Sequence record: NC_129898.1
Direction: 5' to 3' (one strand)
Origin: a phage
DNA length: 64,000 bases
The notes beneath the pieces are model-generated. The model was not told where the DNA came from. It worked only from the letters and a program-made list of their open reading frames with translations, and did not search any database. The translations under genes were made by a program, and so were the position numbers. Position 1 is the stretch's first letter, and each line of letters starts with the position of its first letter. Positions 4,174-64,000 of this stretch are shown here, piece by piece.

Positions 4174-4647
4174 TTAGTCAACCTGAACCCAACCGCCTGC
4201 TACCTTTTTAAACATTCTTTGGTTATCACTGCCTCGGAATGGTTTCTTGGTTGGTAAATCTTTTACATACTTTCCATCAATGACGATATCAGCCAGTTTA
4301 AGAACATCACTAGAGATATGCTCAAATGTGAACCCAGTATACACAAGAATAGTTTTCTTGTCACCAAACTTTTCCTTAATTCTCCTCATAAGGTTGATAA
4401 TATCTGGCTCATTATAAGTAGCCAAAGGCTCTCCACCAAGTAAAGAAATACCGCATACAGATTCATTGTCTAAATCCAACAAAATTTTCTGCAAATCTTC
4501 TTCGGTGAACTCTCTTCCTTTATCTTTTGACCAAAATGCTTGATTAAAGCAACTGGGACAAGCGTGTGGGCACCCAGATACCCACAAAGCTGTCCTAATA
4601 CCTGGCCCCTCGGTGTAAGATATCTCTGTATACCCGACAATATTCAT
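4174..4647 (-). CDS. nrdG: anaerobic ribonucleotide reductase activating protein (radical SAM)
   Basis: 'GCPHACPSC' CxxxCxxC cluster; N-terminus aligns with NrdG when started at the ATG at 4647 rather than the track start at 4665. Confidence 0.8.
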   Translation of the reverse strand: MNIVGYTEISYTEGPGIRTALWVSGCPHACPSCFNQAFWSKDKGREFTEEDLQKILLDLDNESVCGISLLGGEPLATYNEPDIINLMRRIKEKFGDKKTILVYTGFTFEHISSDVLKLADIVIDGKYVKDLPTKKPFRGSDNQRMFKKVAGGWVQVD

Positions 4648-4760
4648 ACATACTCCGCATCGCATTTAGGACAATGCCAAATAAAATCGTCCAGTGCCTT
4701 ACACCAACGAAGATTGCAATGACAACCACACTTGCAAATTTTATAAATACCTGTAGACAT
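4644..4760 (-). CDS. small cysteine-rich (zinc-ribbon-like) protein, 38 aa
   Basis: Own translation MSTGIYKICKCGCHCNLRWCKALDDFIWHCPKCDAEYV; AGGAGGTG RBS; stop overlaps the nrdG ATG (ATGA); not in the track. Confidence 0.35.
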   Translation of the reverse strand: MSTGIYKICKCGCHCNLRWCKALDDFIWHCPKCDAEYV

Positions 4761-4823
4761 GCTGCACCTCCTAGTTTACTGTGTGACAACAATATGCAAC
4801 ATCCTTGTGACTTTTGTCAAGTA

Positions 4824-5786
4824 TCAGCAACCACAACTTCCGTAGTGCTTAACCCGTTCTATAACCTCCGCTTGCTTACCTTTATTGTAAGGACGGGAGT
4901 TTGGACTGGACAGATACCCGGATACACGTCTAATCACACTGATCGTTCCCTCTTCATGGTTTCCACACTCTGGGCATACAAAGCCTTTAGCTGTTGCACT
5001 GAACTCACCAGAGAATCCACACTTAAGACATTTATCCACAGGCTGGTTAATACCAAAATACATAATGTGTTTATATCCGAAATCAACAAGAGCTTCCAAA
5101 GCATCTAAGTTGTTTTTCAGATTTGGTGTCTCTATGTACCCAATGTTGCCACCAGAGGAGATCATAGCAAAACCTTCCTCATACTTCCACTTATCAAAAG
5201 GCGAGCTATTGATCCATACTGGCTGATGGAAACTGTTGGTGAGGTATTCATGCTCGTGCTTCAACACTTCTGGGTATTCACGATCCAGACAGGTTGCAGC
5301 TTTATAGCATAAACTCTCAGAAGGTGTGCCGTACAAGCTAAATGCTAGTCCACTTTCCTTCTTGTATCGCTCACAAGCATCTTTCATGTGCTGAAGGATT
5401 CCAAGAGCTAAAGCCTTGTCACCCTCTCTGCCCAAAATCTGACAGGTTTCATACACACCAATATACCCAATACTGATGGAAGCGTACCCGTCATAGAAGA
5501 GTTTATCGATACTCTCTTCAGGATCCAGGCTAGCAAGAGCTCCTTCACACCACATGATAGGGTTATGCCCTGCCTTTGTTCCTTTTAGACGGTTAACTCT
5601 TACAAGGTGAGCCTCATATGCCAAATCCAAATATTCGTCAAGAACTGCAAAGAAATCAACACCTTCCGTTTTAGCTTTTGCCGCAATCATTGGTAGGTTA
5701 AGGCTAACAACACCCAAGTTGAATCTGCCAAGGTATTTCTCCTCGCCTGTTACAGGGTCGCTATATTTCGATAAGAAACTTCTACA
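4824..5786 (-). CDS. nrdD: anaerobic ribonucleotide reductase, exon 2 (C-terminal part)
   Basis: Begins 'CRSFLS'; C-terminal zinc ribbon CLKC...CPEC and glycyl-radical motif 'RVSGYL'; in frame with exon 1 after removing 5787-6548. Confidence 0.7.
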   Translation of the reverse strand, partial: CRSFLSKYSDPVTGEEKYLGRFNLGVVSLNLPMIAAKAKTEGVDFFAVLDEYLDLAYEAHLVRVNRLKGTKAGHNPIMWCEGALASLDPEESIDKLFYDGYASISIGYIGVYETCQILGREGDKALALGILQHMKDACERYKKESGLAFSLYGTPSESLCYKAATCLDREYPEVLKHEHEYLTNSFHQPVWINSSPFDKWKYEEGFAMISSGGNIGYIETPNLKNNLDALEALVDFGYKHIMYFGINQPVDKCLKCGFSGEFSATAKGFVCPECGNHEEGTISVIRRVSGYLSSPNSRPYNKGKQAEVIERVKHYGSCGC

Positions 5787-6548
5787 CATTATGTTCAAGG
5801 TGGTTCGCAAGGCCACCCCCGCACCATTACGTGCTGCTGCATGTCCCCATGCAGATCAGACTATATCTTCACACTTAGTGTGTCTACCATTTCGAGTGTC
5901 ATCAGCTTACACCCTACACCGCTACATTCATCACGGTTAGTCGTTAGGCATTTCGTAACAGAACTCGTAATCATAGTTATTAGGTGCACCACGTTTCAGG
6001 ATAGCAGATATTCTTTTTCTATCTATTCCTAAAACATCAGCACAACATCTCAGACTCTTAAAGTGAATAACCACACCAGTTAATTTGTGGGTGGCTTTCA
6101 CCCCGTGACATCTTGTGTAAAAAGCATAACAGTTGTTGTCGTATCCTTCTTGAGTATTGTCTGGGCAAGCTCCCCACTCAAGGTTGTATACGCTGTTATC
6201 TTTCCTGTTGTCACCTTTGTGCTTAACATATGGTAAATTGTCTGGATTTGGTAAAAACGCTTCAGCAACAAGTCTGTGAACCCTTAGGCAAACAGTCTTT
6301 TTGTTCTTGCGTATCCTGACAAGACGGTAACCTGTGTTTATCTCTTCCCACGAATGAATAATTCTTTCATTTTCGTATCGGGTGCAATAAACATTGCCCA
6401 TCTCGTCAATTTCATAACCTTCAAAATCACGAATTTGTTTTCTCATTTCAGGACTCCTCTTAGTCAGGAGTTCTGTTACGTTTAGCACGGGATTGTCCGT
6501 TCTGGAGTTTCCCCGTTTAGATAGATTTTACATGAGCAGTTATAGTTT
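5787..6548 (-). mobile_element. group I intron in nrdD carrying an HNH homing endonuclease ORF
   Basis: Exon 1 ends in U (..AUGGGU) with a complementary guide 'GCUCAU' 11 nt into the insert; 'AAGAUAUAGUCU' resembles the group I core S element; hairpin CUGCAUG-GGGA-CAUGCAG; insert ends in G; splicing joins SMG to CRSFL in frame. Confidence 0.6.
5937..6446 (-). CDS. HNH homing endonuclease (intron-encoded)
   Basis: HNH-type region 'VHRLVAEAF...HKGDNRKDNSVYNLEW'; AAGAGGAG RBS before the ATG at 6446. Confidence 0.75.
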   Translation of the reverse strand: MRKQIRDFEGYEIDEMGNVYCTRYENERIIHSWEEINTGYRLVRIRKNKKTVCLRVHRLVAEAFLPNPDNLPYVKHKGDNRKDNSVYNLEWGACPDNTQEGYDNNCYAFYTRCHGVKATHKLTGVVIHFKSLRCCADVLGIDRKRISAILKRGAPNNYDYEFCYEMPND

Positions 6549-7709
6549 ACCCATGCTTGTTACTTTGCCGTCTGTTGAACCTGTCACTTTACGATTTAGT
6601 GGAACAGAAACAAAGTCAGGATAAATCCGCTCTGCAGAGCATTCTAGAGCCAATCGTTTCAAATCGTAGTTAGGATCCCCAGGGTTCATGTTGACACCCT
6701 CCTCTAAGAAGAACAGCACTTTAGGAAACACAGGGGTGATCCGTTCTTCACCAAGACCCATTTTGTGGACTTTCAAGTAGTTTTTGGTAATCATTCTACC
6801 AAAGACCGAGGTATCCAGTCCTAAACTTAATGTGATGAATGGAGTTTGCCCGTTGACAGAAGTTAACGTATTGATTTGGTAGAGCAAAGTTTGCATACTA
6901 TCAAACACGTCTTTATCTGTCATTTGCATTGCAACAGTCTCAGCATCTGGCAACCAATGCTCCTGACAAAATTTAAGGTTCTTCTCATAGGTTGCTTCAG
7001 CATACTGTGCCAGATAATGATCAATATGGCTCATGGTTTGACCACCATATTGAGCACTAGCTACTGCACTAGAGATTTGGCTAAGGATTGTTGTTGCAAC
7101 CCCTATTGACTTCGGCTTACTGACATGGGCGTTGCCAATGTTGAATCCGTTTTCCAGCATATCCGGATAATTTACCAAACAACAGTTTGTTAACGGACTG
7201 ATCAGGTAGTCAAGATCATGCACATGGATGAAGCCTTTGTTGTGCTCTTCGGAGACACGGTCTGGCAGGATCTGTGTTGATGCAAGATGTTTGCTAAGGA
7301 TGCCTGCAAGCAGGTCACGATGAGTGTGTACATGATTAGTAGGCTTATTTGCGTTTTCTTTTGTAAATTCATCACAAGTACGATCCAAGAAGCCACTAAT
7401 ATCTGCAAGCAGTTTTCCACCTGCCTCTCTGTTATTATCTCTTGTCTGTCTATACTGGATGTATTCTCTGGCTGCACATTTTAAACCCATATCCATAAGA
7501 GCATCTTCAACAAGGATATGGATATTTTTTACAGAGATCGTGCACTGGTCGGTTGGCAGATTGTTGGCAACAACTTCATTAACCGCACAGGCAATCCGGT
7601 AAGCTTCTTCTTCAGTATGTCCAGACTCAAGTAAGGCGGACTCTGCCGCCTTGATCACCTTAATTCCGTTATAAAACTCTTCTCTACCGTCCCGTTTTAC
7701 AACTTTCAC
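6549..7709 (-). CDS. nrdD: anaerobic ribonucleotide reductase, exon 1 (N-terminal part with ATP cone)
   Basis: ATP-cone-like N-terminus (VKRDGREEF...); the track ORF continues 3 codons into the intron before a stop. Confidence 0.7.
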
Positions 7710-21036: not shown

Positions 21037-21243
21037 TCATTCAAAGAAATGGGTGCGAGGGCAGGAACCTGCCTCACCTTGCTTCACAAGCTCATATAGC
21101 TCACCTTGGCTTGTCTCATAAAGGCAAATACGTTTACCATTGTCCCGATATACATCTACAAGGTACGCTGTCTCACCTGCAAACACGACACCACAGGCAA
21201 GGCATGCAGCCATGAACAAAATTGCCAACAGAAAATCTTTCAT
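21037..21243 (-). CDS. small membrane-anchored or secreted protein
   Basis: N-terminal hydrophobic segment FLLAILFMAACLACGVVFA; lies directly downstream of the endolysin gene. Confidence 0.4.
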   Translation of the reverse strand: MKDFLLAILFMAACLACGVVFAGETAYLVDVYRDNGKRICLYETSQGELYELVKQGEAGSCPRTHFFE

Positions 21244-21306
21244 AGTTAAATCCTCCTTAACATTCTATGAGGTAACAATACCACGTCCGTGTGGTCATGT
21301 CAATGA

Positions 21307-21777
21307 TTAATCTAGGACAACACCGCCTGACTTTTTAAACACCTCGATCAACTTTTCGATCTTCTGTTCGTGCTGACCGTACCCTGCACCTGGAAGGCTT
21401 GCCCATCGAGATCTGCAAAGATGGATGGCCTGGTGAATACGACCTTCATCAATATCATCGAGCGCCTTACACTCACGGATCAGTTGCAACGCAATCTTGT
21501 CCTGACTGGCAGGGCCAAAATCTGGTAATCCTAACTGTTTCATATAGTGTTTAGCAAACTTCTCCAGAATCTGGTAACGCCCAGCAGCAGAGGAGGTAAG
21601 TTTAGCATTTAGCTTAACGTAAACACCTGGATGCTTACTGTAATCGCTAAACAGCTTGCCCCCGACTATGACATCGTAGCCCCGATCCTTGGTAGGTTGT
21701 CTACCATTATCTGTACCTTCTGAATATGCGATCATATCCAAGAAAGCTTTTCGTTGAACATTTTTATCAAGTTTCAT
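21307..21777 (-). CDS. endolysin, lambda R-type lytic transglycosylase
   Basis: Near-collinear match to lambda R (QRKAFLDM..SEGTDNGRQ..GYDVIVGG..AGRYQ..WASLPGAGYGQ) as recalled from memory. Confidence 0.9.
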   Translation of the reverse strand: MKLDKNVQRKAFLDMIAYSEGTDNGRQPTKDRGYDVIVGGKLFSDYSKHPGVYVKLNAKLTSSAAGRYQILEKFAKHYMKQLGLPDFGPASQDKIALQLIRECKALDDIDEGRIHQAIHLCRSRWASLPGAGYGQHEQKIEKLIEVFKKSGGVVLD

Positions 21778-27129: not shown

Positions 27130-27684
27130 ATGAAATATTTTGTAACAAGCGATACACACTTTCTCCACCAGCGAGTCATGGAGTTTGATTCATGTCAAAA
27201 ACACAGATCTCAGTATGATCACAATCTTGACAGTATGAACGAAGGAATCATTGCAGAGTGGAACTCTGTTGTATCACCAGAAGACACTGTGTTTCACTTG
27301 GGCGATATTGCATGCACTAAGGATAAGAATATCAACAACTTATTTCCAGATATTCTAAATATGTTGAACGGACATATTATTCTTGTTCGTGGTAACCATG
27401 ACACAAGGACGACTGTCAGAATTATGAAAGAGTTCGGTAATGAGGTTGTAGATTATTACGAGCTTCGCCACAACAAGAATTTGATCTGTATGAGCCATTA
27501 CCAGTTTGCAAAGTGGAACAGAAAGCCTCACGGATCAGTCCAACTGTTCGGTCATGCTCACGGAACCACACAGCAGTTGTTTGGCAGGCAGTTTGATGTC
27601 GGTTGGGATGTGTGGGGGAGACTCTTACCATTAGAAGAGGCATACCGTATTGCAATGAGTCTTGCTATTGACAGCGGGGAGTAA
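27130..27684 (+). CDS. calcineurin-like metallophosphoesterase
   Basis: 'VTSDTHF', 'HLGDIA' and 'VRGNHD' metal-binding motifs. Confidence 0.8.
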   Translation: MKYFVTSDTHFLHQRVMEFDSCQKHRSQYDHNLDSMNEGIIAEWNSVVSPEDTVFHLGDIACTKDKNINNLFPDILNMLNGHIILVRGNHDTRTTVRIMKEFGNEVVDYYELRHNKNLICMSHYQFAKWNRKPHGSVQLFGHAHGTTQQLFGRQFDVGWDVWGRLLPLEEAYRIAMSLAIDSGE

Positions 27685-27731
27685 TCCCTGCTATTTTAAA
27701 GAAAATTGCCACACAAGGAGAATCAGGAGAT

Positions 27732-28705: not shown

Positions 28706-28746
28706 CGATACAGTGAGTTTTTCTATAACTTGAAGAGGAGGCAGTT

Positions 28747-30622: not shown

Positions 30623-30697
30623 GCCCTGTTAGCTTAGTGGATAAAGCAGCGGCCTTCTAAGCCGTTGACACTGGTTCGAGTCCAGTACGGGGTGCCA
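30623..30697 (+). tRNA. tRNA-Arg (anticodon TCT)
   Basis: Hand-folded cloverleaf: acceptor GCCCTGT/ACGGGGT, anticodon loop CTTCTAA, T-loop GGTTCGAGTCC, encoded CCA. Confidence 0.75.
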
Positions 30698-30827
30698 AGT
30701 TCTTTTTAATGTAGCTTACTTTAGCAGAGTAAATCTTCGGCAAGTGGCGGTAACCACTTTACCGATACCTCATAGTTAGTGGTGAGAACACTAGCTATTT
30801 TAAAAAGAATTTAAATATTAGTATTTA

Positions 30828-30915
30828 GGTGAGTTAATTCCGTAGGGGTAGCGGGGCAGACTGTAAATCTGTTATCATTGCGATTCGGGTGGTTCGACTC
30901 CATCACTCACCACCA
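30828..30915 (+). tRNA. tRNA-Tyr (anticodon GTA)
   Basis: Acceptor GGTGAGT/ACTCACC, anticodon arm CAGACTGTAAATCTG as in E. coli tRNA-Tyr, long variable arm, encoded CCA. Confidence 0.8.
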
Positions 30916-31029
30916 AATTTATATTTTTAAATGCATAAATCATACAGATAATGGCATTGATATTTATCGTCGTTTATACTAGTCACTAACTGCTCGAAAA
31001 TCAGTGTCATTATCAGTATTGTTTATAAA

Positions 31030-31120
31030 AGAGGGTAGGGAGCAATGGTGCTCAAGCGGTCTTGAAAACCGTCCCGTTGAGGATGACTCGATGATGGTTC
31101 GATTCCATTATCCTCTGCCA
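31030..31120 (+). tRNA. tRNA-Ser (anticodon TGA)
   Basis: Acceptor AGAGGGT/ATCCTCT, anticodon loop CTTGAAA, 20-nt variable arm, T-loop GGTTCGATTCC, encoded CCA. Confidence 0.75.
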
Positions 31121-31218
31121 TATTGTTGACCTTGTAATTAAGCGAAAGCCGGAAGCAGAACCGGATTATCAAATGTTACAGTCGTCATCGCCGACTAGCC
31201 ACATGGTCAACATATTGC

Positions 31219-31315
31219 GCTAGGTAAGCCCTTTGGCAAGGGCGAGGATTTTTAATCCTGAAAATAGACGAGGTAGTCGTTGAATACATAGATGGTTCGA
31301 TTCCATCACCTAGCA
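31219..31315 (+). tRNA. tRNA-Lys-like (anticodon TTT) with atypically long variable region
   Basis: Acceptor GCTAGGT/ACCTAGC and anticodon arm GAGGA-TTTTTAA-TCCTG are canonical, but about 30 nt separate the anticodon stem from the T arm and CCA is not fully encoded. Confidence 0.4.
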
Positions 31316-31321
31316 CCTTTT

Positions 31322-31397
31322 GCTGATGTAGCACAATTGGCAGTGCAATTGATTTGTAATCAATAGGTTGCAGGTTCAAGTCCTGCCATCAGCACCA
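31322..31397 (+). tRNA. tRNA-Thr (anticodon TGT)
   Basis: Acceptor GCTGATG/CATCAGC, anticodon arm ATTGA-TTTGTAA-TCAAT, T-loop GGTTCAAGTCC, encoded CCA. Confidence 0.85.
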
Positions 31398-31398
31398 T

Positions 31399-31473
31399 GG
31401 CCCTGTAGCTGGAAGGTTCAAGCAAGCGACTCATAATCGCCAGACGGTGGTTCAATTCCACCCAGGGCCACCA
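31399..31473 (+). tRNA. tRNA-Met or tRNA-Ile2 (anticodon CAT)
   Basis: Acceptor GGCCCTG/CAGGGCC, anticodon loop CTCATAA, T-loop GGTTCAATTCC, encoded CCA. Confidence 0.75.
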
Positions 31474-31484
31474 AATTATAAATA

Positions 31485-31561
31485 CTCCGCGTAGCTCAGC
31501 TTGGTAGAGCGCCTGATTTGGGATCAGGAGGTCGAGTGTTCGAATCACTCCGTGGAGACCA
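31485..31561 (+). tRNA. tRNA-Pro (anticodon TGG)
   Basis: Acceptor CTCCGCG/CGTGGAG, anticodon arm CCTGA-TTTGGGA-TCAGG, T-loop GTGTTCGAATCAC, encoded CCA. Confidence 0.8.
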
Positions 31562-31607
31562 CCTTTAGTTATACTTTAAACATATACACACAAAAGGAAC
31601 CTTTAAA

Positions 31608-31877
31608 ATGTATACACTTAAAATTGTAGAGCGTGTAAATCCAACCCATACTGTAGATTTTCGTGACGATTTCAATCCTCTGGCTGTAAATCTTCGAGAG
31701 TCATATCATGAACTCAGCTGCGATGCAGTGGTGGTCTTTTTTGAAGACAACTCTGAAGGGGCGGTAGCTTGTGTTGTTGATAGTGAGCAGAAGTTTTATA
31801 TTTACAGAGATGTAGATGCATACTTGATGAATGAAAATGCAGTTACTGTTAGAATCATCCACCGAGTGCCTCGATAA
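31608..31877 (+). CDS. hypothetical protein
   Basis: 89-aa ORF after the tRNA cluster. Confidence 0.45.
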   Translation: MYTLKIVERVNPTHTVDFRDDFNPLAVNLRESYHELSCDAVVVFFEDNSEGAVACVVDSEQKFYIYRDVDAYLMNENAVTVRIIHRVPR

Positions 31878-31930
31878 GTATTAGTCTCCTTTTAGTTAGT
31901 TTCGATCTATTTAGGTTACTCAATTTTAAC

Positions 31931-31966
31931 CCGCCCCGTTAGCTGTATAGCTGCGGGGTTTTTTCG
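31931..31966 (+). terminator. rho-independent terminator-like hairpin
   Basis: CCGCCCCG..CGGGG stem followed by TTTTTT. Confidence 0.45.
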
Positions 31967-31982
31967 TTTCTGGAGCCTTAAA

Positions 31983-32381
31983 ATGATTTCAGTTTTAACA
32001 TGGCTAGGTAGGTATAGAGGGATCATAAAAGGTTTAGTTTTTGCAGCTGCTCTAGGCACAGCATACCTTGGGGCCGTGTATTGGTTTAACTCTAAGCTTA
32101 ACGCTGCTTATCAGGAAGGTGTAACAGCAACAGAGTTGAAGTGGGAGCAGATCCTTGACCAGCAACAAAAGCGAGCCGACAGGATTAAAATGGGACATGC
32201 CGAGGAGGTGAAAAACCTTGAAAAATCCCTTTCTGACTTACAGGATAAGCTGGAGGCAGCTAAGATGGCAGGTAAAGAAAAGCAGATTATTTACCTCCAG
32301 TCACCTGAGGGTAAGAAGTCAACACTCCCTGACCAGCTTATAGATATCTATAACGAGAGCATCAATCAGGAGGGTAGATGA
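31983..32381 (+). CDS. i-spanin (Rz-like)
   Basis: N-terminal transmembrane helix (IIKGLVFAAALGTAYLGAVYWF) followed by a coiled-coil-like periplasmic domain. Confidence 0.55.
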   Translation: MISVLTWLGRYRGIIKGLVFAAALGTAYLGAVYWFNSKLNAAYQEGVTATELKWEQILDQQQKRADRIKMGHAEEVKNLEKSLSDLQDKLEAAKMAGKEKQIIYLQSPEGKKSTLPDQLIDIYNESINQEGR

Positions 32382-32665
32382 GAGCCACCGTATTATTAGT
32401 TGCTTGCTTGCTTCTGTGCGGATGCGCGACAAGTGTCGAAAAAGAATATAAGATTGATCCTCCGGATGTGGGAAGATTGATTGTTAAACCGCCCGAAGGT
32501 GCTATGAAGCCTCCTGCTAAAGCTATACCTTTAAAGAAAGGTGCGCCTGATGCGGTGAATTCTGGCATTATGAGGGATAATAACCTGTCTTGCAGTAATG
32601 ATAGGGCTAAATTGATCATTTTGCAAGACTATATTAGAACACTGTTTCCAAAGGAGAGAGGTTAA
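32378..32665 (+). CDS. o-spanin (Rz1-like lipoprotein)
   Basis: Signal peptide with lipobox-like LLLCGC and proline-rich mature part; ATGA overlap with the i-spanin gene. Confidence 0.55.
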   Translation: MRATVLLVACLLLCGCATSVEKEYKIDPPDVGRLIVKPPEGAMKPPAKAIPLKKGAPDAVNSGIMRDNNLSCSNDRAKLIILQDYIRTLFPKERG

Positions 32666-34212
32666 TGTCTAAGATTTACGGACCGTGTTCTGAAAAGCAG
32701 AAGATGATCCTTGAAAACGATGCAGACATTCTTGTCATTGGTGGTGCGGCTGGTTCAGGTAAGTCGTTCCTCCTGCAGTTGATGCCGCTTAAAATTATTG
32801 ATGATCCGCACAGCTCTGTGGTTATGTTCCGAAGAACAACTCCACAGTTGGAAGGTGAGGGTGGGCTATGGCCTAAAGCAGTAGCTATTTACAGTGATCT
32901 GCCTGAAAACATTAAACCAAAGTTCAGAGAGAAGGATCATAAGTTTATTTTTCCACGGTTTGATCCGAGCACTGGCAAGTGGGACAGGAGCAAAAAAGGG
33001 GCCGTTGTAAAATACTGCCACATGGAGTATGTCCAAGATAAGCTTAACCATCAAGGCCTTGAGTACACCATGGTTTGCTTCGATGAAGGCACGCAATTCG
33101 AATGGGAGCAGATAGACTATTTGATGTCTCGTCTGCGATCTCAGTCAAAGTATCCATCAAGAATGGTTATCAGTTGTAACCCCGACTCAGAACACATGCT
33201 TGCCAAACTGGTTAGGTGGTGGTTGGACGATGAAGGGTATCCAGATCCGGAGAAATGTGGTAAGAAAAGATATTTTATCCGACGCGACGGTGAGTTTATC
33301 TGGGGAGACTCTAAAGAGGAGTTAATAGAGAAATACACCACGGTTAACGGACTGGGTGTGGAGATCAAGCCAAGACCGTTGTCATTCTCGTTTATAGGTG
33401 CAACAATTTTCGATAATCCTGTCTGCTTGAGAGACAACCCAGAATACCTTGCTTTCCTTGAAGGTCTACCAGAGCTTGAAAAAGCCCAGCTTCTTCATGG
33501 CAACTGGTTTGCCAAACCTGAGGGTGCAAACTATTTCCAAAGATCTTTCCTTCGTGATGCCGATAGAGTACCTCTTGGATCAGTATCTTGCAGGGCATGG
33601 GATAAGGCAGGAACCGAGAGAACTTCCGGTAATAAATTTCCTGACTTTACTGCCAGTGTTAAGGTAAGTAAAGATAGCGACGGTTTTTATTACCTGTCCG
33701 GGGATTATTGTCCTGAGAACGTGGATGACGGTAGGTATTCCACAGGTCTGGAAGGTAAGTTCTGTAAAAAGGCTGGGGAACGAGATGTGATCATCAGGAA
33801 ACAGGCGCAGTTTGATGGAGATGATTGCATAATCGTATTTTCTGTGGACCCCGGTCAGGCAGGTAAGAGTGAGTTCTTAACCTCGTCCAGATCCTTGCTC
33901 GCCGAAGGGTTCAGGGTTGAAGAAGATCCGATGCCTTCCAACAAATCTAAACTGACAAGGTTCTCACCTTTTGCCAATCTTGCCCAACAAGGAATGGTGA
34001 GGATTGTAAAATCCAGTTTCCATCCTGACACTCTGGAAGCATTTTTGACTGAACTTGAAAAGTTCAACGGGGAAAGATCAACATTTAACAGAAAAGACGA
34101 CTGGGCCGACTGTGTAGCTTCTGCGATTAATTTCCTGGAGAAAGAGGAGGTAGCGCTGCCTTGTGTTATTCCATCAATCTCATCACCTTCTATGTTCAAG
34201 CGTTTTATCTAA
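32665..34212 (+). CDS. terminase large subunit
   Basis: Walker A 'GGAAGSGKS', Walker B 'MVCFDEGTQ', C-terminal nuclease-like region. Confidence 0.9.
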   Translation: MSKIYGPCSEKQKMILENDADILVIGGAAGSGKSFLLQLMPLKIIDDPHSSVVMFRRTTPQLEGEGGLWPKAVAIYSDLPENIKPKFREKDHKFIFPRFDPSTGKWDRSKKGAVVKYCHMEYVQDKLNHQGLEYTMVCFDEGTQFEWEQIDYLMSRLRSQSKYPSRMVISCNPDSEHMLAKLVRWWLDDEGYPDPEKCGKKRYFIRRDGEFIWGDSKEELIEKYTTVNGLGVEIKPRPLSFSFIGATIFDNPVCLRDNPEYLAFLEGLPELEKAQLLHGNWFAKPEGANYFQRSFLRDADRVPLGSVSCRAWDKAGTERTSGNKFPDFTASVKVSKDSDGFYYLSGDYCPENVDDGRYSTGLEGKFCKKAGERDVIIRKQAQFDGDDCIIVFSVDPGQAGKSEFLTSSRSLLAEGFRVEEDPMPSNKSKLTRFSPFANLAQQGMVRIVKSSFHPDTLEAFLTELEKFNGERSTFNRKDDWADCVASAINFLEKEEVALPCVIPSISSPSMFKRFI

Positions 34213-34215
34213 GTG

Positions 34216-34244
34216 TTGCCAATCTTAATTAGATGTGGTAGAAT
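34216..34244 (+). promoter_or_regulatory. promoter-like element (TTGCCA-17-TAGAAT with TG extension)
   Basis: Between the terminase and portal genes. Confidence 0.4.
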
Positions 34245-34314
34245 AGAGTAATCGGAGATACTAGCCCTCTGACACGAGGGCTATTTTGTTATACTGTTTT
34301 GAGGGGTAAAGCTT

Positions 34315-59667: not shown

Positions 59668-60220
59668 GATGATAAGAGCGCCATTAGATAATTTATTTCT
59701 TGAAAAGCTAGAGCTTGATGGTGTTGAGATCTTAATTGCTGCAAAGCTAGAGCTGCCAACAGGGACTGTCAGGGTGTGCTCAGGAACTGGTGTTGTGGTG
59801 ATTGAGGGGCAACATTTTATAGGGATAGGTGGATCAGCAACATTGACTGCTGTGTCTGAGAAAGATGCCACCAACTTCGGATCTGTGGTAGCAACATTGA
59901 ACGGGTTTGATCCTAAATATGTTGGCGATCTACTGAAGACGGAGTACTCTGGTTGCCGTGCCACGTTATATATCACCGCTATGGAGAATGGTTTACCTGT
60001 CACAACTAATGGCTTGTTTGACGGCCTTATAACAGACATGGCTATTCAGACAGGGGAGAATAGTGCTCTGTCCATATCCATCTCTTCCATCTTCAACAGC
60101 TGGTTAAGAGGTTTTCCTTATCGATACACAGAGGAAAGCCATAGTTCAAGAAACGATAATGACAGATTTTTTAAATATGTAGATCAGGTGGCGAGCCGCC
60201 CGATCATTTGGGAGGTTTAA
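59654..60220 (+). CDS. minor tail protein
   Basis: 188-aa ORF overlapping its neighbours. Confidence 0.45.
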   Translation: MRISKMIRAPLDNLFLEKLELDGVEILIAAKLELPTGTVRVCSGTGVVVIEGQHFIGIGGSATLTAVSEKDATNFGSVVATLNGFDPKYVGDLLKTEYSGCRATLYITAMENGLPVTTNGLFDGLITDMAIQTGENSALSISISSIFNSWLRGFPYRYTEESHSSRNDNDRFFKYVDQVASRPIIWEV

Positions 60221-60645
60221 TGAGCACACATCCTCGTTTAGTAGACTGGCAAGAAAGGTTGTGGAAAGTATTTGACGAAGAAGCCACCGTCCCGTTTGAA
60301 TGGGGATTCCACGATTGTTGCACTTTTGCTGCTAAGTGTGTTGATGCCCAATACGGAACAGATTTTCTTTCTAACTTTGAAGGAACGTATAAAACAGAGT
60401 TGGAAAGCAAGAGATGGTGCATGCTTCGTTTCAAAACCACACACCTGCCTACTGTTTTTGATCTCTTTTTGACTCGACTGGATACTCCTAAACAGGTCCA
60501 GCGTGGTGATATTGTTATTTTCGAAGGTCTGAACGGCCTCACCGCTGGTGTGTTTTGGAACAACCTGATTTGGGCGAAAGGTGATAAAGGGATCTTTACG
60601 TTCGATATGAAAGATTCTATCGTTGTTGATGTCTGGAGGTATTAA
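60208..60645 (+). CDS. minor tail protein, possible NlpC/P60-like peptidase fold
   Basis: 'GFHDCCTF' Cys-containing motif with downstream His; weak. Confidence 0.35.
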   Translation: MGGLMSTHPRLVDWQERLWKVFDEEATVPFEWGFHDCCTFAAKCVDAQYGTDFLSNFEGTYKTELESKRWCMLRFKTTHLPTVFDLFLTRLDTPKQVQRGDIVIFEGLNGLTAGVFWNNLIWAKGDKGIFTFDMKDSIVVDVWRY

Positions 60646-63600
60646 TGCCAATTGCAATGATTGATAACATCGTTGCTTCTGCAAGATCTTCAAGTTATGA
60701 CTGGAACGCATCCAAGGCAGCTCTGGCTGACAGCCTGAACACTGTTACCACCAGAACTCTGGATAAGATTTTCGAGGGCAACAAATCTTACAGAAGTCAG
60801 CAAGATAGACAAAAGCTTCTCAGATCTTCTGCTGCACCTTGCTCTGTAGTATATGGAAAGACACGCACATCTGGATTGCTTGCGTTTTTGGAGCAGGACA
60901 GGGACAGAACCCTTCATTGTGCTATTGTTCTTGCTAATCATCCCTTGGAAGGCATAGAAGATATACTTATCGACGGTAATCCTATTTCTTCGTATGGCGA
61001 TTTGGTATCGTGGGAGTTACATAACGACAGGAAAACCTCTGATCCTTTCATGGGCACACACTGCCCTTCATGGTCACCAGACATGATAGGCAGAGGGATC
61101 AGTTGGCTACGTGCCAGCTTCAAGTTTGACCCCAACAAGTTTCCTTTTGGGTTGCCAAACGTTACACTCGTCAAGGTTGGTAAAAAATGTTATGATCCTC
61201 GTATCAGTAAGGAGGTGTATACCAATAACGCTGCCTTGGTGATTCTGGACTACCTAAGAACGTACCTCAAATGTCCCGACGAAACTATCAACTGGGAGTC
61301 CTTCAAGGAAGCTGCCAACATATGTGACGAAGCTGTAAGAAACGCAGACGGAACCAGTGAGCGTCGTTACACCATTAATGGTGAGTTTGACATGGATGAA
61401 GCACCAGCAAGTATTATGGCAGAAATGCTGAAAGCTTGTGGTGCAGATCTTAGCTATGTAGCTGGTAAATATGGTCTGCTGGTAGGTGCATACTATGGCC
61501 CGGCAACAATGACACTGAGTGAGGACTGTGTTTGCGGTGAGGTTAAGATCTATCCGGAAGCCTCCTTCGATAAAAGATCGAACACAATAACTGGCAGATT
61601 CACCAGTCCAACCAAAGGGTATTCTGAAACAGACTTCCCATCGGTGTTCGTACCTGAGTGGGTAGAGAAGGATGGAGAAAGAAAGATAATTGATATAGAT
61701 TATCGTTTTGTTACCAGTCCTTATCAAGCTCAGCGTGTTTCCGCAATATTCTTAAGACGTGCCAGAGCTGGCAGGATTATTGAAGTAACCTGCAATATGC
61801 GGGGTTTTAAATTTAAGCCTGGGCGTTACGTTACGATGGACCTTCCAAGTATTGGTATAGTGGGCCAAGAAATGAGGGTTCTTGAATGGGAGTTCACCAA
61901 AAAGGGCGGTGTCAAGGTAAAACTCCGTCAAGATGCTAAAGAGTGGAATGATGCCACAGGGCAACTTCCAGACTCTGGAGATGTAAATATTCCGATATCT
62001 CCATCTGGTGTAGCTCAACCGCAAAACTTCAGATACTCTGTTCTTCAAGCCGGGGAAGTAACTCACGGTGTTTTGGCTTGGGACAACGTTGGGACTTATG
62101 CTCAAAACATTGTGCAGGTAAGAAAGAACGGAGAGATTATTTGGACAGCACAAACAGTCGAGCAGTTTGTCCGCGTAGAGGGATTGACCAAAGGGTCATA
62201 CACAGCAACCGTGGTTGCAACATCTTATAAAGGTGGTGTATCTCCAGAAGCGTACTGCGAGTTTAACATTCAGGCACCTGAAGCCCCGGTTTCTGTAGAA
62301 GTTAAGCAGGGATACTTTGCTATCACCCTGATTCCGCACAGCAGGGACTTAGCAAGTGTAAGCACCCAGTATGACTTTTGGACATCTGGTATGACAAGGT
62401 TGCCGGACACAAGTGATGCAACCGTTACTTCAAAAGCCACCCGCATGGGTGTTGGTTCAACTTGGACATCTGAAGGTCTGCAGAACGATAAGATTTATTA
62501 TTGGTATATTCGAACCACAAATGCTTTTGGTAGTTCTCAGTTTGTAGAGTGTGCTGCACGCTGCTATACCTCCATTGAAGATTTGATGCCTCAGATAGAT
62601 GCTGAATTTAAAAAGACAGAAACTTATAAAGAGTTGATGAGCACTTTAGATTCCTCTATTGAAGAGGTTGAAAATCGTGTCACAGAACTTAACAAGTACA
62701 TGGACGGAAGGGTAGATGAGGCATTCCAACAACTTGGGGATAGGATAGGTGCTGTAGTTACAGAGACAACTCAGAAGTTTGAGGATGTCAATGGCAATAT
62801 CACAGCGCTGGATAAGAAACTTGTTGCTGCACAGAACAAGTTCACCAACGATCTGAACACTGAAAGTGGAAGACTGGCATCCCTGATTGAGACAACCAAT
62901 AAAGCAACCACTGATCTTCTGAACAAAAAGACAGAGGCTTTAGATGAGAAATTGGTTGCAGCCAAAGGGGAGTTGGTAGAACAAATAGGTGGAGTGGAGA
63001 GCGGATACCTTGCCGGAGATAAAACTCTGGATGGCAAGATCAATACCCAGAGAACAGAACTTGACGCAAGCATCTTGAGCACCAATAAGGCGACAGTGGA
63101 TCTTCTTAACAGGACCTCTGAAACTCTGGATCAAAAGATCAGTCAGACAAACGCGACGGTATCTAAGAACTATACCACCCTTGACGGTAAGATAACTACC
63201 GCAAAAACTGATCTCAATACCTTGATTGCCAATACCAACAAGGCCACCACAGATTTGTTGAATCAGAAAACCTCCGCACTGTCGGAGCAGATAACTTCTG
63301 CACGTGGGGAGATTTCTACCAACAAACAGGCGATTGCGGATTTGGATGGTAAGCTGACCTCCACAAAAACAGTACTGGACGCTACAATCTCCGATACCAA
63401 CAAAGCAACTGTGGATCTTATTAACGGCACAGCGTCAGCTATTCGTCAAGAACTTGCTGTTGCTAAGCAGGAGATCATTGATGATGTTGGGGATGTATCA
63501 GAGCTAAGAGCTGCAGTGGCTACAACATCTAAGGCTGTGACCGACTTAGAGGGCAAAGTAAATGCTCAATGGGGCACAAAAATACAGGTAGACTCCGCAG

Positions 63601-64000
63601 GGAATAAGTATGTGGCAGGTATCCAATTGGGAATGGAAGGTTCTGGAGGCCAAGTTCAATCATACTTCATGGTTAGTGCAAACAACTTTGCGGTATACAA
63701 CCCTGGGAATGGAACAGCAACCCTTGCTTTCGCAATTAAGAACAACCAAGCGTTCTTGAAAGATGCCTTTATAGAGAACGGGACGATCTCTTCTGCCAAG
63801 ATTGCACAAGAAATTTCGTCTAACAACTACGATGGCAACGGGTACCATAAATACGGTTGGTATATTAACAAGAACGGGCACGCCCAGTTTATGGATGTGT
63901 GGGTGAAAGGTAACATCAACGCTAGTGCAGGTAACTTCACAGGGGCAGTTAACGCCACCAGTGGTACCTTCCGTGGGGATGTTTATGCCAATAATGGTAG
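60645..64000 (+). CDS. large tail fibre/host-specificity protein with FN3-like domain and C-terminal periodic repeats (3' end beyond window)
   Basis: ATG at 60645 overlapping the upstream stop; frame read through to the window end without a stop (hand translation); FN3-like segment; repeated TNKATTDLLN..K..L units. Confidence 0.65.
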   Translation, partial: MPIAMIDNIVASARSSSYDWNASKAALADSLNTVTTRTLDKIFEGNKSYRSQQDRQKLLRSSAAPCSVVYGKTRTSGLLAFLEQDRDRTLHCAIVLANHPLEGIEDILIDGNPISSYGDLVSWELHNDRKTSDPFMGTHCPSWSPDMIGRGISWLRASFKFDPNKFPFGLPNVTLVKVGKKCYDPRISKEVYTNNAALVILDYLRTYLKCPDETINWESFKEAANICDEAVRNADGTSERRYTINGEFDMDEAPASIMAEMLKACGADLSYVAGKYGLLVGAYYGPATMTLSEDCVCGEVKIYPEASFDKRSNTITGRFTSPTKGYSETDFPSVFVPEWVEKDGERKIIDIDYRFVTSPYQAQRVSAIFLRRARAGRIIEVTCNMRGFKFKPGRYVTMDLPSIGIVGQEMRVLEWEFTKKGGVKVKLRQDAKEWNDATGQLPDSGDVNIPISPSGVAQPQNFRYSVLQAGEVTHGVLAWDNVGTYAQNIVQVRKNGEIIWTAQTVEQFVRVEGLTKGSYTATVVATSYKGGVSPEAYCEFNIQAPEAPVSVEVKQGYFAITLIPHSRDLASVSTQYDFWTSGMTRLPDTSDATVTSKATRMGVGSTWTSEGLQNDKIYYWYIRTTNAFGSSQFVECAARCYTSIEDLMPQIDAEFKKTETYKELMSTLDSSIEEVENRVTELNKYMDGRVDEAFQQLGDRIGAVVTETTQKFEDVNGNITALDKKLVAAQNKFTNDLNTESGRLASLIETTNKATTDLLNKKTEALDEKLVAAKGELVEQIGGVESGYLAGDKTLDGKINTQRTELDASILSTNKATVDLLNRTSETLDQKISQTNATVSKNYTTLDGKITTAKTDLNTLIANTNKATTDLLNQKTSALSEQITSARGEISTNKQAIADLDGKLTSTKTVLDATISDTNKATVDLINGTASAIRQELAVAKQEIIDDVGDVSELRAAVATTSKAVTDLEGKVNAQWGTKIQVDSAGNKYVAGIQLGMEGSGGQVQSYFMVSANNFAVYNPGNGTATLAFAIKNNQAFLKDAFIENGTISSAKIAQEISSNNYDGNGYHKYGWYINKNGHAQFMDVWVKGNINASAGNFTGAVNATSGTFRGDVYANNG

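Follow-up and report, generated by a model that had tools for sequence, protein, structure and literature searches.

Does the phage of sequence record NC_129898.1 really keep its lysis genes apart from one another and, if so, which protein would open the inner membrane of its host? The question is raised by a pair of small genes placed directly upstream of the gene for the terminase large subunit (TerL), in the 64,000-nt stretch of DNA that we analysed and that we refer to as the window. A first-pass annotation had read these two genes as spanins, had found the endolysin gene on the other strand, and had described the lysis functions as dispersed rather than gathered in one cassette. Our results support this description: endolysin and spanins occupy separate loci, on both strands, and do not form a single cassette. 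The dispersed layout is real; it is also ordinary and has already been published for rV5-like phages. The explanation that we favour, and that we hold to be highly probable, is that the window derives from an rV5-like coliphage with lysis genes distributed among different transcription units, a situation also found in T7 and T4.

The origin of the window was assessed by nucleotide similarity. When positions 31600-34300 and the initial 3 kb of the window were compared to phage records, approximately 120 of these matched with nucleotide identities of 93-97%, and almost all of them were rV5-like coliphages (Vequintavirus) such as YP-6, HMD-6, FV3, rV5 and the BASEL phages. Judged by these matches, the window belongs to the genome of an rV5-like coliphage (Vequintavirus). 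It runs antiparallel to the rV5 record, and its position 1 corresponds to about position 92983 of rV5 and to position 28741 of HMD-6. In gene content and gene positions, the window agrees with the published rV5-like genomes (rV5, LL12, FV3, PVP-SE1 and CB7), with strain-level differences only; a deletion of approximately 390 bp is found near nrdG. The TerL gene of rV5 consists of three exons and an HNH gene, whereas that of the window has no intron. In rV5, the spanins are encoded by ORFs 67 and 66, directly upstream of TerL, the lysozyme by ORF 89, and a membrane protein of 68 aa by ORF 90. The literature on rV5-like phages already describes spanins beside TerL and the absence of a lysis cassette, and it names either no holin or no more than a candidate (papers on UAE_MI-01, KP1/KP12 and Minorna were set aside, their subjects not being rV5-like phages). 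The positions of the features discussed below are collected in Table 1.

Table 1. Positions of the features discussed in the text, numbered from the first nucleotide of the window.
Feature	Position	Strand	Description
68-aa protein (rV5 ORF 90 family, PHROG 4641)	21037..21243	-	predicted signal peptide and two-cysteine beta domain
Sigma-70-like promoter	21275..21303	-	TTGACA-17-TATTGT, extended -10 TG; 10/12 matches; P90 in rV5 record
Endolysin, lambda R-type lytic transglycosylase	21307..21777	-	156 aa; PHROG 90 endolysin, E 5e-55
Terminator-like hairpin	31934..31964	+	CCCCG-UUAGCUGUAUAGCUG-CGGGG then U6; minimum-energy and centroid folds
i-spanin (Rz-like inner-membrane subunit)	31983..32381	+	132 aa; PHROG 4297
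o-spanin (Rz1-like outer-membrane lipoprotein)	32378..32665	+	95 aa; PHROG 1267
TerL (terminase large subunit)	32665..34212	+	515 aa, uninterrupted; PHROG 979, E 2e-208

The endolysin matched the structures of lambda lysozyme available in the PDB (1AM7 and 3D3D) over residues 4-154 (E = 2.2e-56 for 1AM7), and the catalytic SEGT motif was aligned between the two proteins ('aysegtdngrq' in the endolysin and 'awsegtdngrq' in 1AM7). Its gene is found on the strand opposite to that of the spanins, at a distance of 10.2 kb, between the genes for DNA ligase and an HNH endonuclease/exonuclease, and is part of a long series of minus-strand genes for replication and nucleotide metabolism. The earlier description of a lambda R-type endolysin about 10 kb away on the other strand was therefore accurate. 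Pfam and NCBIfam gave no match for the endolysin, the spanins or the 68-aa protein, and useful matches for these sequences came from the PHROGs and the search of the PDB only. The N-terminus of the endolysin (MKLDKNVQRKAFLDM) contains no hydrophobic stretch, and no segment of the protein passed even the relaxed hydropathy scan. Because the endolysin presents neither a signal peptide nor a signal-anchor-release (SAR) domain, it should be cytoplasmic and dependent on a holin.

We searched the entire window for such a holin. Membrane topology was judged from hydropathy windows, applied at two stringencies to all plausible genes, and from alignments. These hydropathy scans of all plausible genes detected no small protein with two or three membrane helices encoded within the 64 kb. 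An N-terminal membrane-targeting hydrophobic segment was found in three small proteins only, namely the i-spanin, the o-spanin and the 68-aa protein encoded beside the endolysin. The first-pass annotation had seen no classic holin near the endolysin or the spanins and had proposed to check this by predicting the membrane topology of all small ORFs. Our hydropathy-based check identified no canonical holin adjoining either locus, and the same result holds across the whole 64 kb.

Several hydrophobic ORFs were considered and rejected during this search. An ORF of 65 aa with a holin-like look (4595-4792, minus strand) is an out-of-frame artefact that overlaps the start of nrdG. The real gene at this locus is a Cys-rich ORF of 38 aa (4644-4760, minus strand), which has a strong Shine-Dalgarno sequence and is conserved in HMD-6. 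Further hydrophobic ORFs of the minus strand (62.2-63.9 kb) are artefacts antisense to an ORF for a tail fibre (60630-63998, plus strand) that encodes more than 1123 aa and runs off the right end of the window.

The only published holin candidate for this group of phages is gp129 of rV5. No homologue of gp129 was found within the window by tblastn. In rV5, ORF129 is located at 94058-94294, beyond the point that matches the left edge of the window, and the homologue of HMD-6 is located at 27466-27702, 1.04 kb before the equivalent of the window start (28741). From collinearity with these relatives, we infer that a gp129 homologue is present in this phage approximately 1.0-1.3 kb past the left edge of the window, on the strand of the endolysin. 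In both rV5 and HMD-6, gp129 is 78 aa long and has hydrophobic segments at approximately residues 3-30 and 36-63, with a basic C-terminal tail rich in K, R and E (KNIRKEKKESRDGDRT and KTVRKMKEADKNGNSA). By hydropathy, both versions present the topology of a class II holin, that is, two helices and a charged tail. This protein is restricted to Vequintavirus, it is unusually variable (53-100% amino-acid identity) and it belongs to PHROG 10061 (function unknown). Searches of Pfam and NCBIfam gave no match for gp129, neither homology to holins nor linkage to lysis genes was found, and no record names gp129 a holin among the matches listed.

The neighbours of gp129 share its variability. Between HMD-6 and rV5, identity was 49% for ORF128, 56% for ORF129 and 72% for ORF130, against 92-100% for the flanking genes, which suggests that the three genes form a small co-diverging island. 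ORF128, the upstream neighbour of gp129, carries the label 'putative glycosidase' in the BASEL annotations, which our searches did not confirm. When ORF128 was considered as a wall hydrolase, we found no Pfam match, no PDB sequence match and three homologue clusters only, and its AlphaFold2 model was unusable (pLDDT 49). The gp129 homologue is our best candidate for the holin, but this assignment is tentative and we rate its chances as somewhat short of even. The group is widely used in therapy and biocontrol, and its only published holin candidate is encoded outside the window.

Alternatively, it has to be considered that rV5-like phages have no canonical holin, and that the membrane is breached by a protein of an unrecognised kind or by a holin-independent route. 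Several annotation efforts in this subfamily are in line with such a scenario: in KPP-1, the holin 'could not be discovered' (PMC9862379), the annotators of LL12 accepted no protein as the holin, and none is named in the annotated stretch of BASEL phage DrSchubert that covers these loci. It is also consistent with gp129 having no homologues outside the genus, although the set-up of endolysin and spanins is more widely shared. However, gp129 itself constitutes a plausible class II-like candidate, and holins are extremely diverse and routinely missed in homology searches. Moreover, to our knowledge, a hole-forming holin is always needed by a cytoplasmic lambda R-type endolysin without an export signal. 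Overall, we consider that the absence of a canonical holin is improbable. A more elaborate version is likewise improbable: the Vequintavirinae would lack the known classes of holins, and the timing of lysis would depend on a membrane protein of an unrecognised kind or on a module such as the ORF128-129-130 island just outside the window. The 68-aa protein might then regulate lysis in the periplasm or inhibit the lysozyme, comparable to RI or Spackle of T4, instead of being an unrelated early protein.

The 68-aa protein had been put forward in the first-pass annotation as the only nearby candidate for the holin. It would then be a single-helix holin of N-in/C-out topology, similar to T of T4, and would form a mini-cassette with the endolysin. 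It is indeed the sole membrane-targeted small protein near the endolysin, its single N-terminal hydrophobic stretch is strong (mean Kyte-Doolittle value of 2.7 over 19 residues), and its gene adjoins the lysozyme gene in most Vequintavirus genomes. However, an alignment of 11 homologues revealed that the hydrophobic N-terminus is the least conserved part of the family, variable in both sequence and length, and in some homologues it is short (approximately 14 residues, then R or W). This stretch always ends in a (V/A/S/T)-x-(A/S) signal-peptidase I site, and the small-x-small motifs found in the alignment are VFA, SFA, TFA, VRS, AWS, AWA, ASA and AHA. A near-invariant glycine, Gly23 (22 in the Met-less numbering of the alignment), comes right after the motif and is followed by an invariant Thr (G-x-T); in the protein of the window, cleavage is predicted between VFA and GE.

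The part of the protein located past the cleavage site presents the opposite pattern. Its approximately 45 residues are strongly conserved among the 11 homologues and include two invariant cysteines and a GSCP motif. In the protein of the window, the 45 C-terminal residues are net acidic (8 D/E vs 5 K/R) and do not form a short basic tail. The AlphaFold2 model (pLDDT 81) consists of a confident four-strand beta domain with the two cysteines and a low-confidence N-terminal helix. When this model was compared to the PDB with Foldseek, no match was found below an E-value of 0.01, and the hits were generic small beta-barrels only (best E = 0.019). The variable hydrophobic N-terminus, the conserved peptidase site and the conserved C-terminal domain together resemble a Sec signal peptide that is cleaved off from a secreted, disulfide-bonded domain, and not a holin.

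The distribution and genomic context of the family also argue against a holin. The family (PHROG 4641, function unknown) is small, with 123 phage records and ten metagenomic clusters, and amino-acid identity to the protein of the window is at least 95% in 119 of the 123 records. Holins usually diverge fast, and a conservation of 95-100% is unlike that of typical holins. The 63-nt gap between the endolysin gene and the 68-aa gene contains the predicted sigma-70-type promoter that the authors of rV5 annotated as P90, which would provide the 68-aa gene with its own promoter, although the count of sigma-70-like sites in the region of this gene is not above chance. The two genes are not always linked: a homing endonuclease (HNH gene) is inserted between them in DrSchubert, the homologue of Serratia phage ChuuTotoro lies between the ligase and exonuclease genes with no endolysin neighbour, and no endolysin is annotated beside the homologue of Salmonella phage SSBI34. 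In sum, the conserved helix core, basic C-terminal tail and consistent linkage to lysis genes of a holin were not found in this family, the proposal did not hold up, and we regard it as very unlikely that the 68-aa protein is the holin. Rather, it looks like a secreted, disulfide-bonded periplasmic mini-protein with its own promoter. It should not be annotated as a holin, and this negative result is the useful outcome of our analysis.

Both genes upstream of TerL gave matches to families of 'Rz-like spanin' proteins in the PHROGs. For the first protein, the match was to PHROG 4297 and extended along the entire protein (residues 1-130 of 130, E = 7e-48); for the second, it was to PHROG 1267 (E = 4e-22). 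The i-spanin gene has a GGAG Shine-Dalgarno sequence, and its product presents an N-terminal membrane helix at approximately residues 14-35 (Kyte-Doolittle value of 1.76 over 19 residues). With R10 and R12 placed before the helix on the cytoplasmic side, hydropathy indicated a single N-terminal helix of N-in/C-out topology, and the alignment revealed the same helix layout in four genera. The remainder is a long charged periplasmic domain without cysteine, of which residues 40-105 are rich in E, K, Q, L and A, a composition that may point to a coiled coil.

The o-spanin start codon sits within the ATGA that ends the i-spanin gene, which yields an overlap of 4 nt. The signal peptide of the o-spanin ends in a lipobox, L13-C14-G15-C16, followed by Ala17 at position +2. 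G15 and C16 were invariant in Vequintavirus, Seunavirus, Mydovirus and Avunavirus, and L13 was kept in all five aligned sequences. The invariant Gly-Cys of this lipobox marks Cys16 as the lipidated residue. The residue at +2 was never Asp in the alignment, which is consistent with sorting to the outer membrane. The predicted mature protein (80 aa) contains 9 prolines, and its single periplasmic cysteine, Cys72, is nearer to the C-terminus (23 residues away) than to the lipid anchor (56 residues away); the o-spanins of the sister genera have no equivalent of Cys72. The cysteine pattern of this pair is that of the single-cysteine spanin systems described by Kongari et al., who also list an 'rv5' spanin family (Kongari 2018, PMC6139136).

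Homologues of the i-spanin were found in 200 phage records. Four genera of Vequintavirinae have kept the gene order i-spanin, o-spanin, TerL. Seunavirus SSE121, Mydovirus KpS11 and Avunavirus Av-05 all present the i-spanin, o-spanin, TerL and portal genes in this order, including the 4-nt overlap. The number of records and the conservation of gene order across the four genera indicate that the arrangement is far beyond chance, and many GenBank records already label the pair I-spanin and O-spanin. By all the sequence-level features tested, the pair is a two-component spanin of the Rz/Rz1 type, a kind of protein that disrupts the outer membrane. That the two genes would instead encode packaging proteins such as the small terminase subunit (TerS) is scarcely credible: although TerS is usually encoded directly upstream of TerL, with translational coupling here as well, although the rV5-like genomes, in the parts examined, have no annotated TerS, and although the i-spanin weakly matches a TerS family (phrog_1206, E = 0.0016), this match spans the charged helical region only, the matches to spanin families are full-length and 40 orders of magnitude stronger, the first protein starts with a membrane helix and the second with a signal peptide and a lipobox whose Gly-Cys is invariant in four genera, and the spanins of T7 are also placed between TerS and TerL.

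At the junction with the terminase gene, the stop codon of the o-spanin (TAA) and the start codon of TerL (ATG) share 1 nt in the sequence TAATG. Judged from this arrangement, the spanins, recognised as such by PHROGs, share the orientation of the packaging genes, and their translation is coupled to that of TerL. The two spanin genes are the first of the morphogenesis block. The first-pass annotation was thus correct in placing the spanin pair directly upstream of the terminase gene, and the ORFs that it described, with their 4-nt overlap and their shared orientation with the packaging genes, were recovered exactly.

On the upstream side, the terminator-like hairpin stops 19 nt short of the i-spanin start codon (ATG) and divides a block of tRNAs and small genes from the spanin-TerL block. 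The fold of the 66-nt stretch that holds this hairpin is not exceptional (z = -1.5), and a consensus scan did not report it. No sigma-70-like promoter for the spanin-TerL block was found between the tRNA cluster and the spanins. An ORF of 89 aa located upstream of the spanins was considered as a candidate TerS and rejected: its length is that of gp18 of T7, but it has no similarity to gp18. Its predicted product is a soluble protein of PHROG 8729 (function unknown), with no match in Pfam.

With its lysis genes dispersed in this manner, the phage could lyse its host according to established lysis biology, as described by the model of the Young laboratory. The endolysin, which has no signal, would build up harmlessly in the cytoplasm. 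The spanins would be produced along with the packaging and head proteins and would span the periplasm from one membrane to the other; the o-spanins would form dimers joined via Cys72, and the peptidoglycan mesh would restrain the spanins. A holin encoded elsewhere in the genome would then open the inner membrane at a programmed time. Finally, the endolysin would break down the wall, and the freed spanins would fuse the inner and outer membranes.

The significance of this layout extends little beyond correct annotation, and the arrangement matches those of T7 and T4. In T7, the gene order is holin (17.5), TerS (18), spanins (18.5/18.7) and TerL (19), so that the spanins are found immediately upstream of TerL, as they are here, and they are co-expressed with the packaging genes, which is another likeness to the window. 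The lysozyme gene of T7 (3.5) is far away, among DNA-metabolism genes. Some differences are nevertheless apparent. The o-spanin of T7 is embedded in the i-spanin frame, whereas the pair of the window overlaps by just 4 nt. T7 encodes its holin and TerS just upstream of the spanins, whereas in the window this place is taken by the 89-aa soluble protein, with no holin nearby. Finally, the T7 lysozyme is an amidase and the endolysin of the window is a transglycosylase.

In T4, the endolysin (e), the holin (t) and a non-embedded spanin pair (pseT.3/pseT.2) are encoded at unlinked loci, as in rV5-like phages, and the authors of rV5 made the same analogy. The i-spanin of T4 has no cysteine and the disulfide is made via the o-spanin, as in the pair of the window (Kongari 2018, PMC6139136). 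In contrast to the window, the spanins of T4 are not located beside the terminase. The holin T is a single-helix protein of 218 aa with a large periplasmic domain, and the endolysin of T4 is a muramidase whose fold differs from that of the endolysin of the window.

The comparison with lambda is closest at the level of the proteins. Lambda R is a close homologue of the endolysin of the window, and the lambda spanin is made of the same parts, an inner-membrane helix protein and an outer-membrane lipoprotein. However, the four lambda genes (S-R-Rz/Rz1) form a single late cassette in which Rz1 is embedded in Rz, whereas the lysis genes of the phage studied here are found on both strands at two loci at least, and probably at three.

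In the window, the gene for the terminase large subunit (TerL) is one uninterrupted open reading frame (ORF), whereas the rV5 gene consists of three joined segments around an HNH homing endonuclease, and that of HMD-6 is annotated in two pieces. The genome thus carries an intron-free terminase allele. The nrdD gene, for the anaerobic ribonucleotide reductase, is interrupted by an HNH homing endonuclease, as it is in HMD-6 too. Relative to HMD-6, a deletion of ~390 bp was found at 4640-4830, by which the equivalents of rV5 ORF115 and ORF116 were lost and a short Cys-rich ORF was left. Upstream of the spanins, two members of the tRNA cluster differ between the ARAGORN and Rfam calls: the tRNA at 30828-30912 was called by Rfam but not by ARAGORN, and the tRNA-Ser at 31030-31120 by ARAGORN but not by Rfam. 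Both tools called a tRNA-like element at 31219-31317 that is over-long (97-99 nt) and presents an odd anticodon loop.

Coordinates of the features discussed, in the window or in retrieved relative sequences (L002, L003, L007-L009)
Feature	Coordinates	Strand	Remarks
nrdD, split	4824-7709	-	
nrdD, N-terminal part	6540-7709	-	
HNH homing endonuclease in nrdD	5937-6488	-	
nrdD, C-terminal part	4824-5816	-	
Cys-rich ORF left by deletion	4644-4760	-	38 aa; stop overlaps nrdG start
68-aa protein	21037-21243	-	
tRNA cluster	30623-31561		
Terminator-like hairpin	31934-31964		CCCCG...CGGGG + U6; directly upstream of i-spanin start
TerL	32665-34212	+	515 aa
ORF before large tail-fibre gene	60175-60642	+	roughly 150 aa; HDC motif
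ORF128/129/130 island	L002:31503-32431; L003:4611-5482		lies some 1 kb past the window's left edge
Large gene upstream of i-spanin, SSE121	L007:1674-2483		
Large gene upstream of i-spanin, KpS11	L008:1017-2474		
Large gene upstream of i-spanin, Av-05	L009:1134-2489		
Spanin homologues, SSE121	L007:2480-3168		
Spanin homologues, KpS11	L008:2471-3162		

The 68-aa protein encoded beside the endolysin shows 95-100% identity across 119 of 123 phage records, a conservation exceeding that of its surroundings. It resembles a secreted beta mini-domain with two cysteines whose gene appears to have a promoter of its own; a role as periplasmic regulator or inhibitor is only a guess. The ORF lying just before the large tail-fibre gene has an HMD-6 counterpart annotated as 'cell wall hydrolase protein', and its product is probably an enzyme associated with the tail, not a second endolysin. 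The rV5 genes ORF128, ORF129 and ORF130 form a co-diverging island, with amino-acid identities of 49%, 56% and 72% between rV5 and HMD-6, as against 92-100% for the flanking genes. Two further small membrane proteins adjoin this island: the 39-aa ORF131, with one membrane helix, and the 151-aa ORF133, whose membrane helix is C-terminal.

The terminator-like hairpin before the i-spanin gene carries no annotation in the rV5 record and is absent from the output of the consensus scan. The sister genera present a large gene (269-485 aa, PHROG 16176/37109) that shares 4 nt with the start of the i-spanin gene, whereas in Vequintavirus an 89-aa ORF and the hairpin occupy its place. The genera also differ in their spanin cysteines. 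Vequintavirus o-spanins carry Cys72, whereas the Seunavirus and Mydovirus homologues (SSE121 and KpS11) have a periplasmic cysteine in neither subunit. Cysteine-less two-component spanins make up roughly 4% (Kongari et al., PMC6139136), and the Seunavirus and Mydovirus pairs therefore belong to this class.
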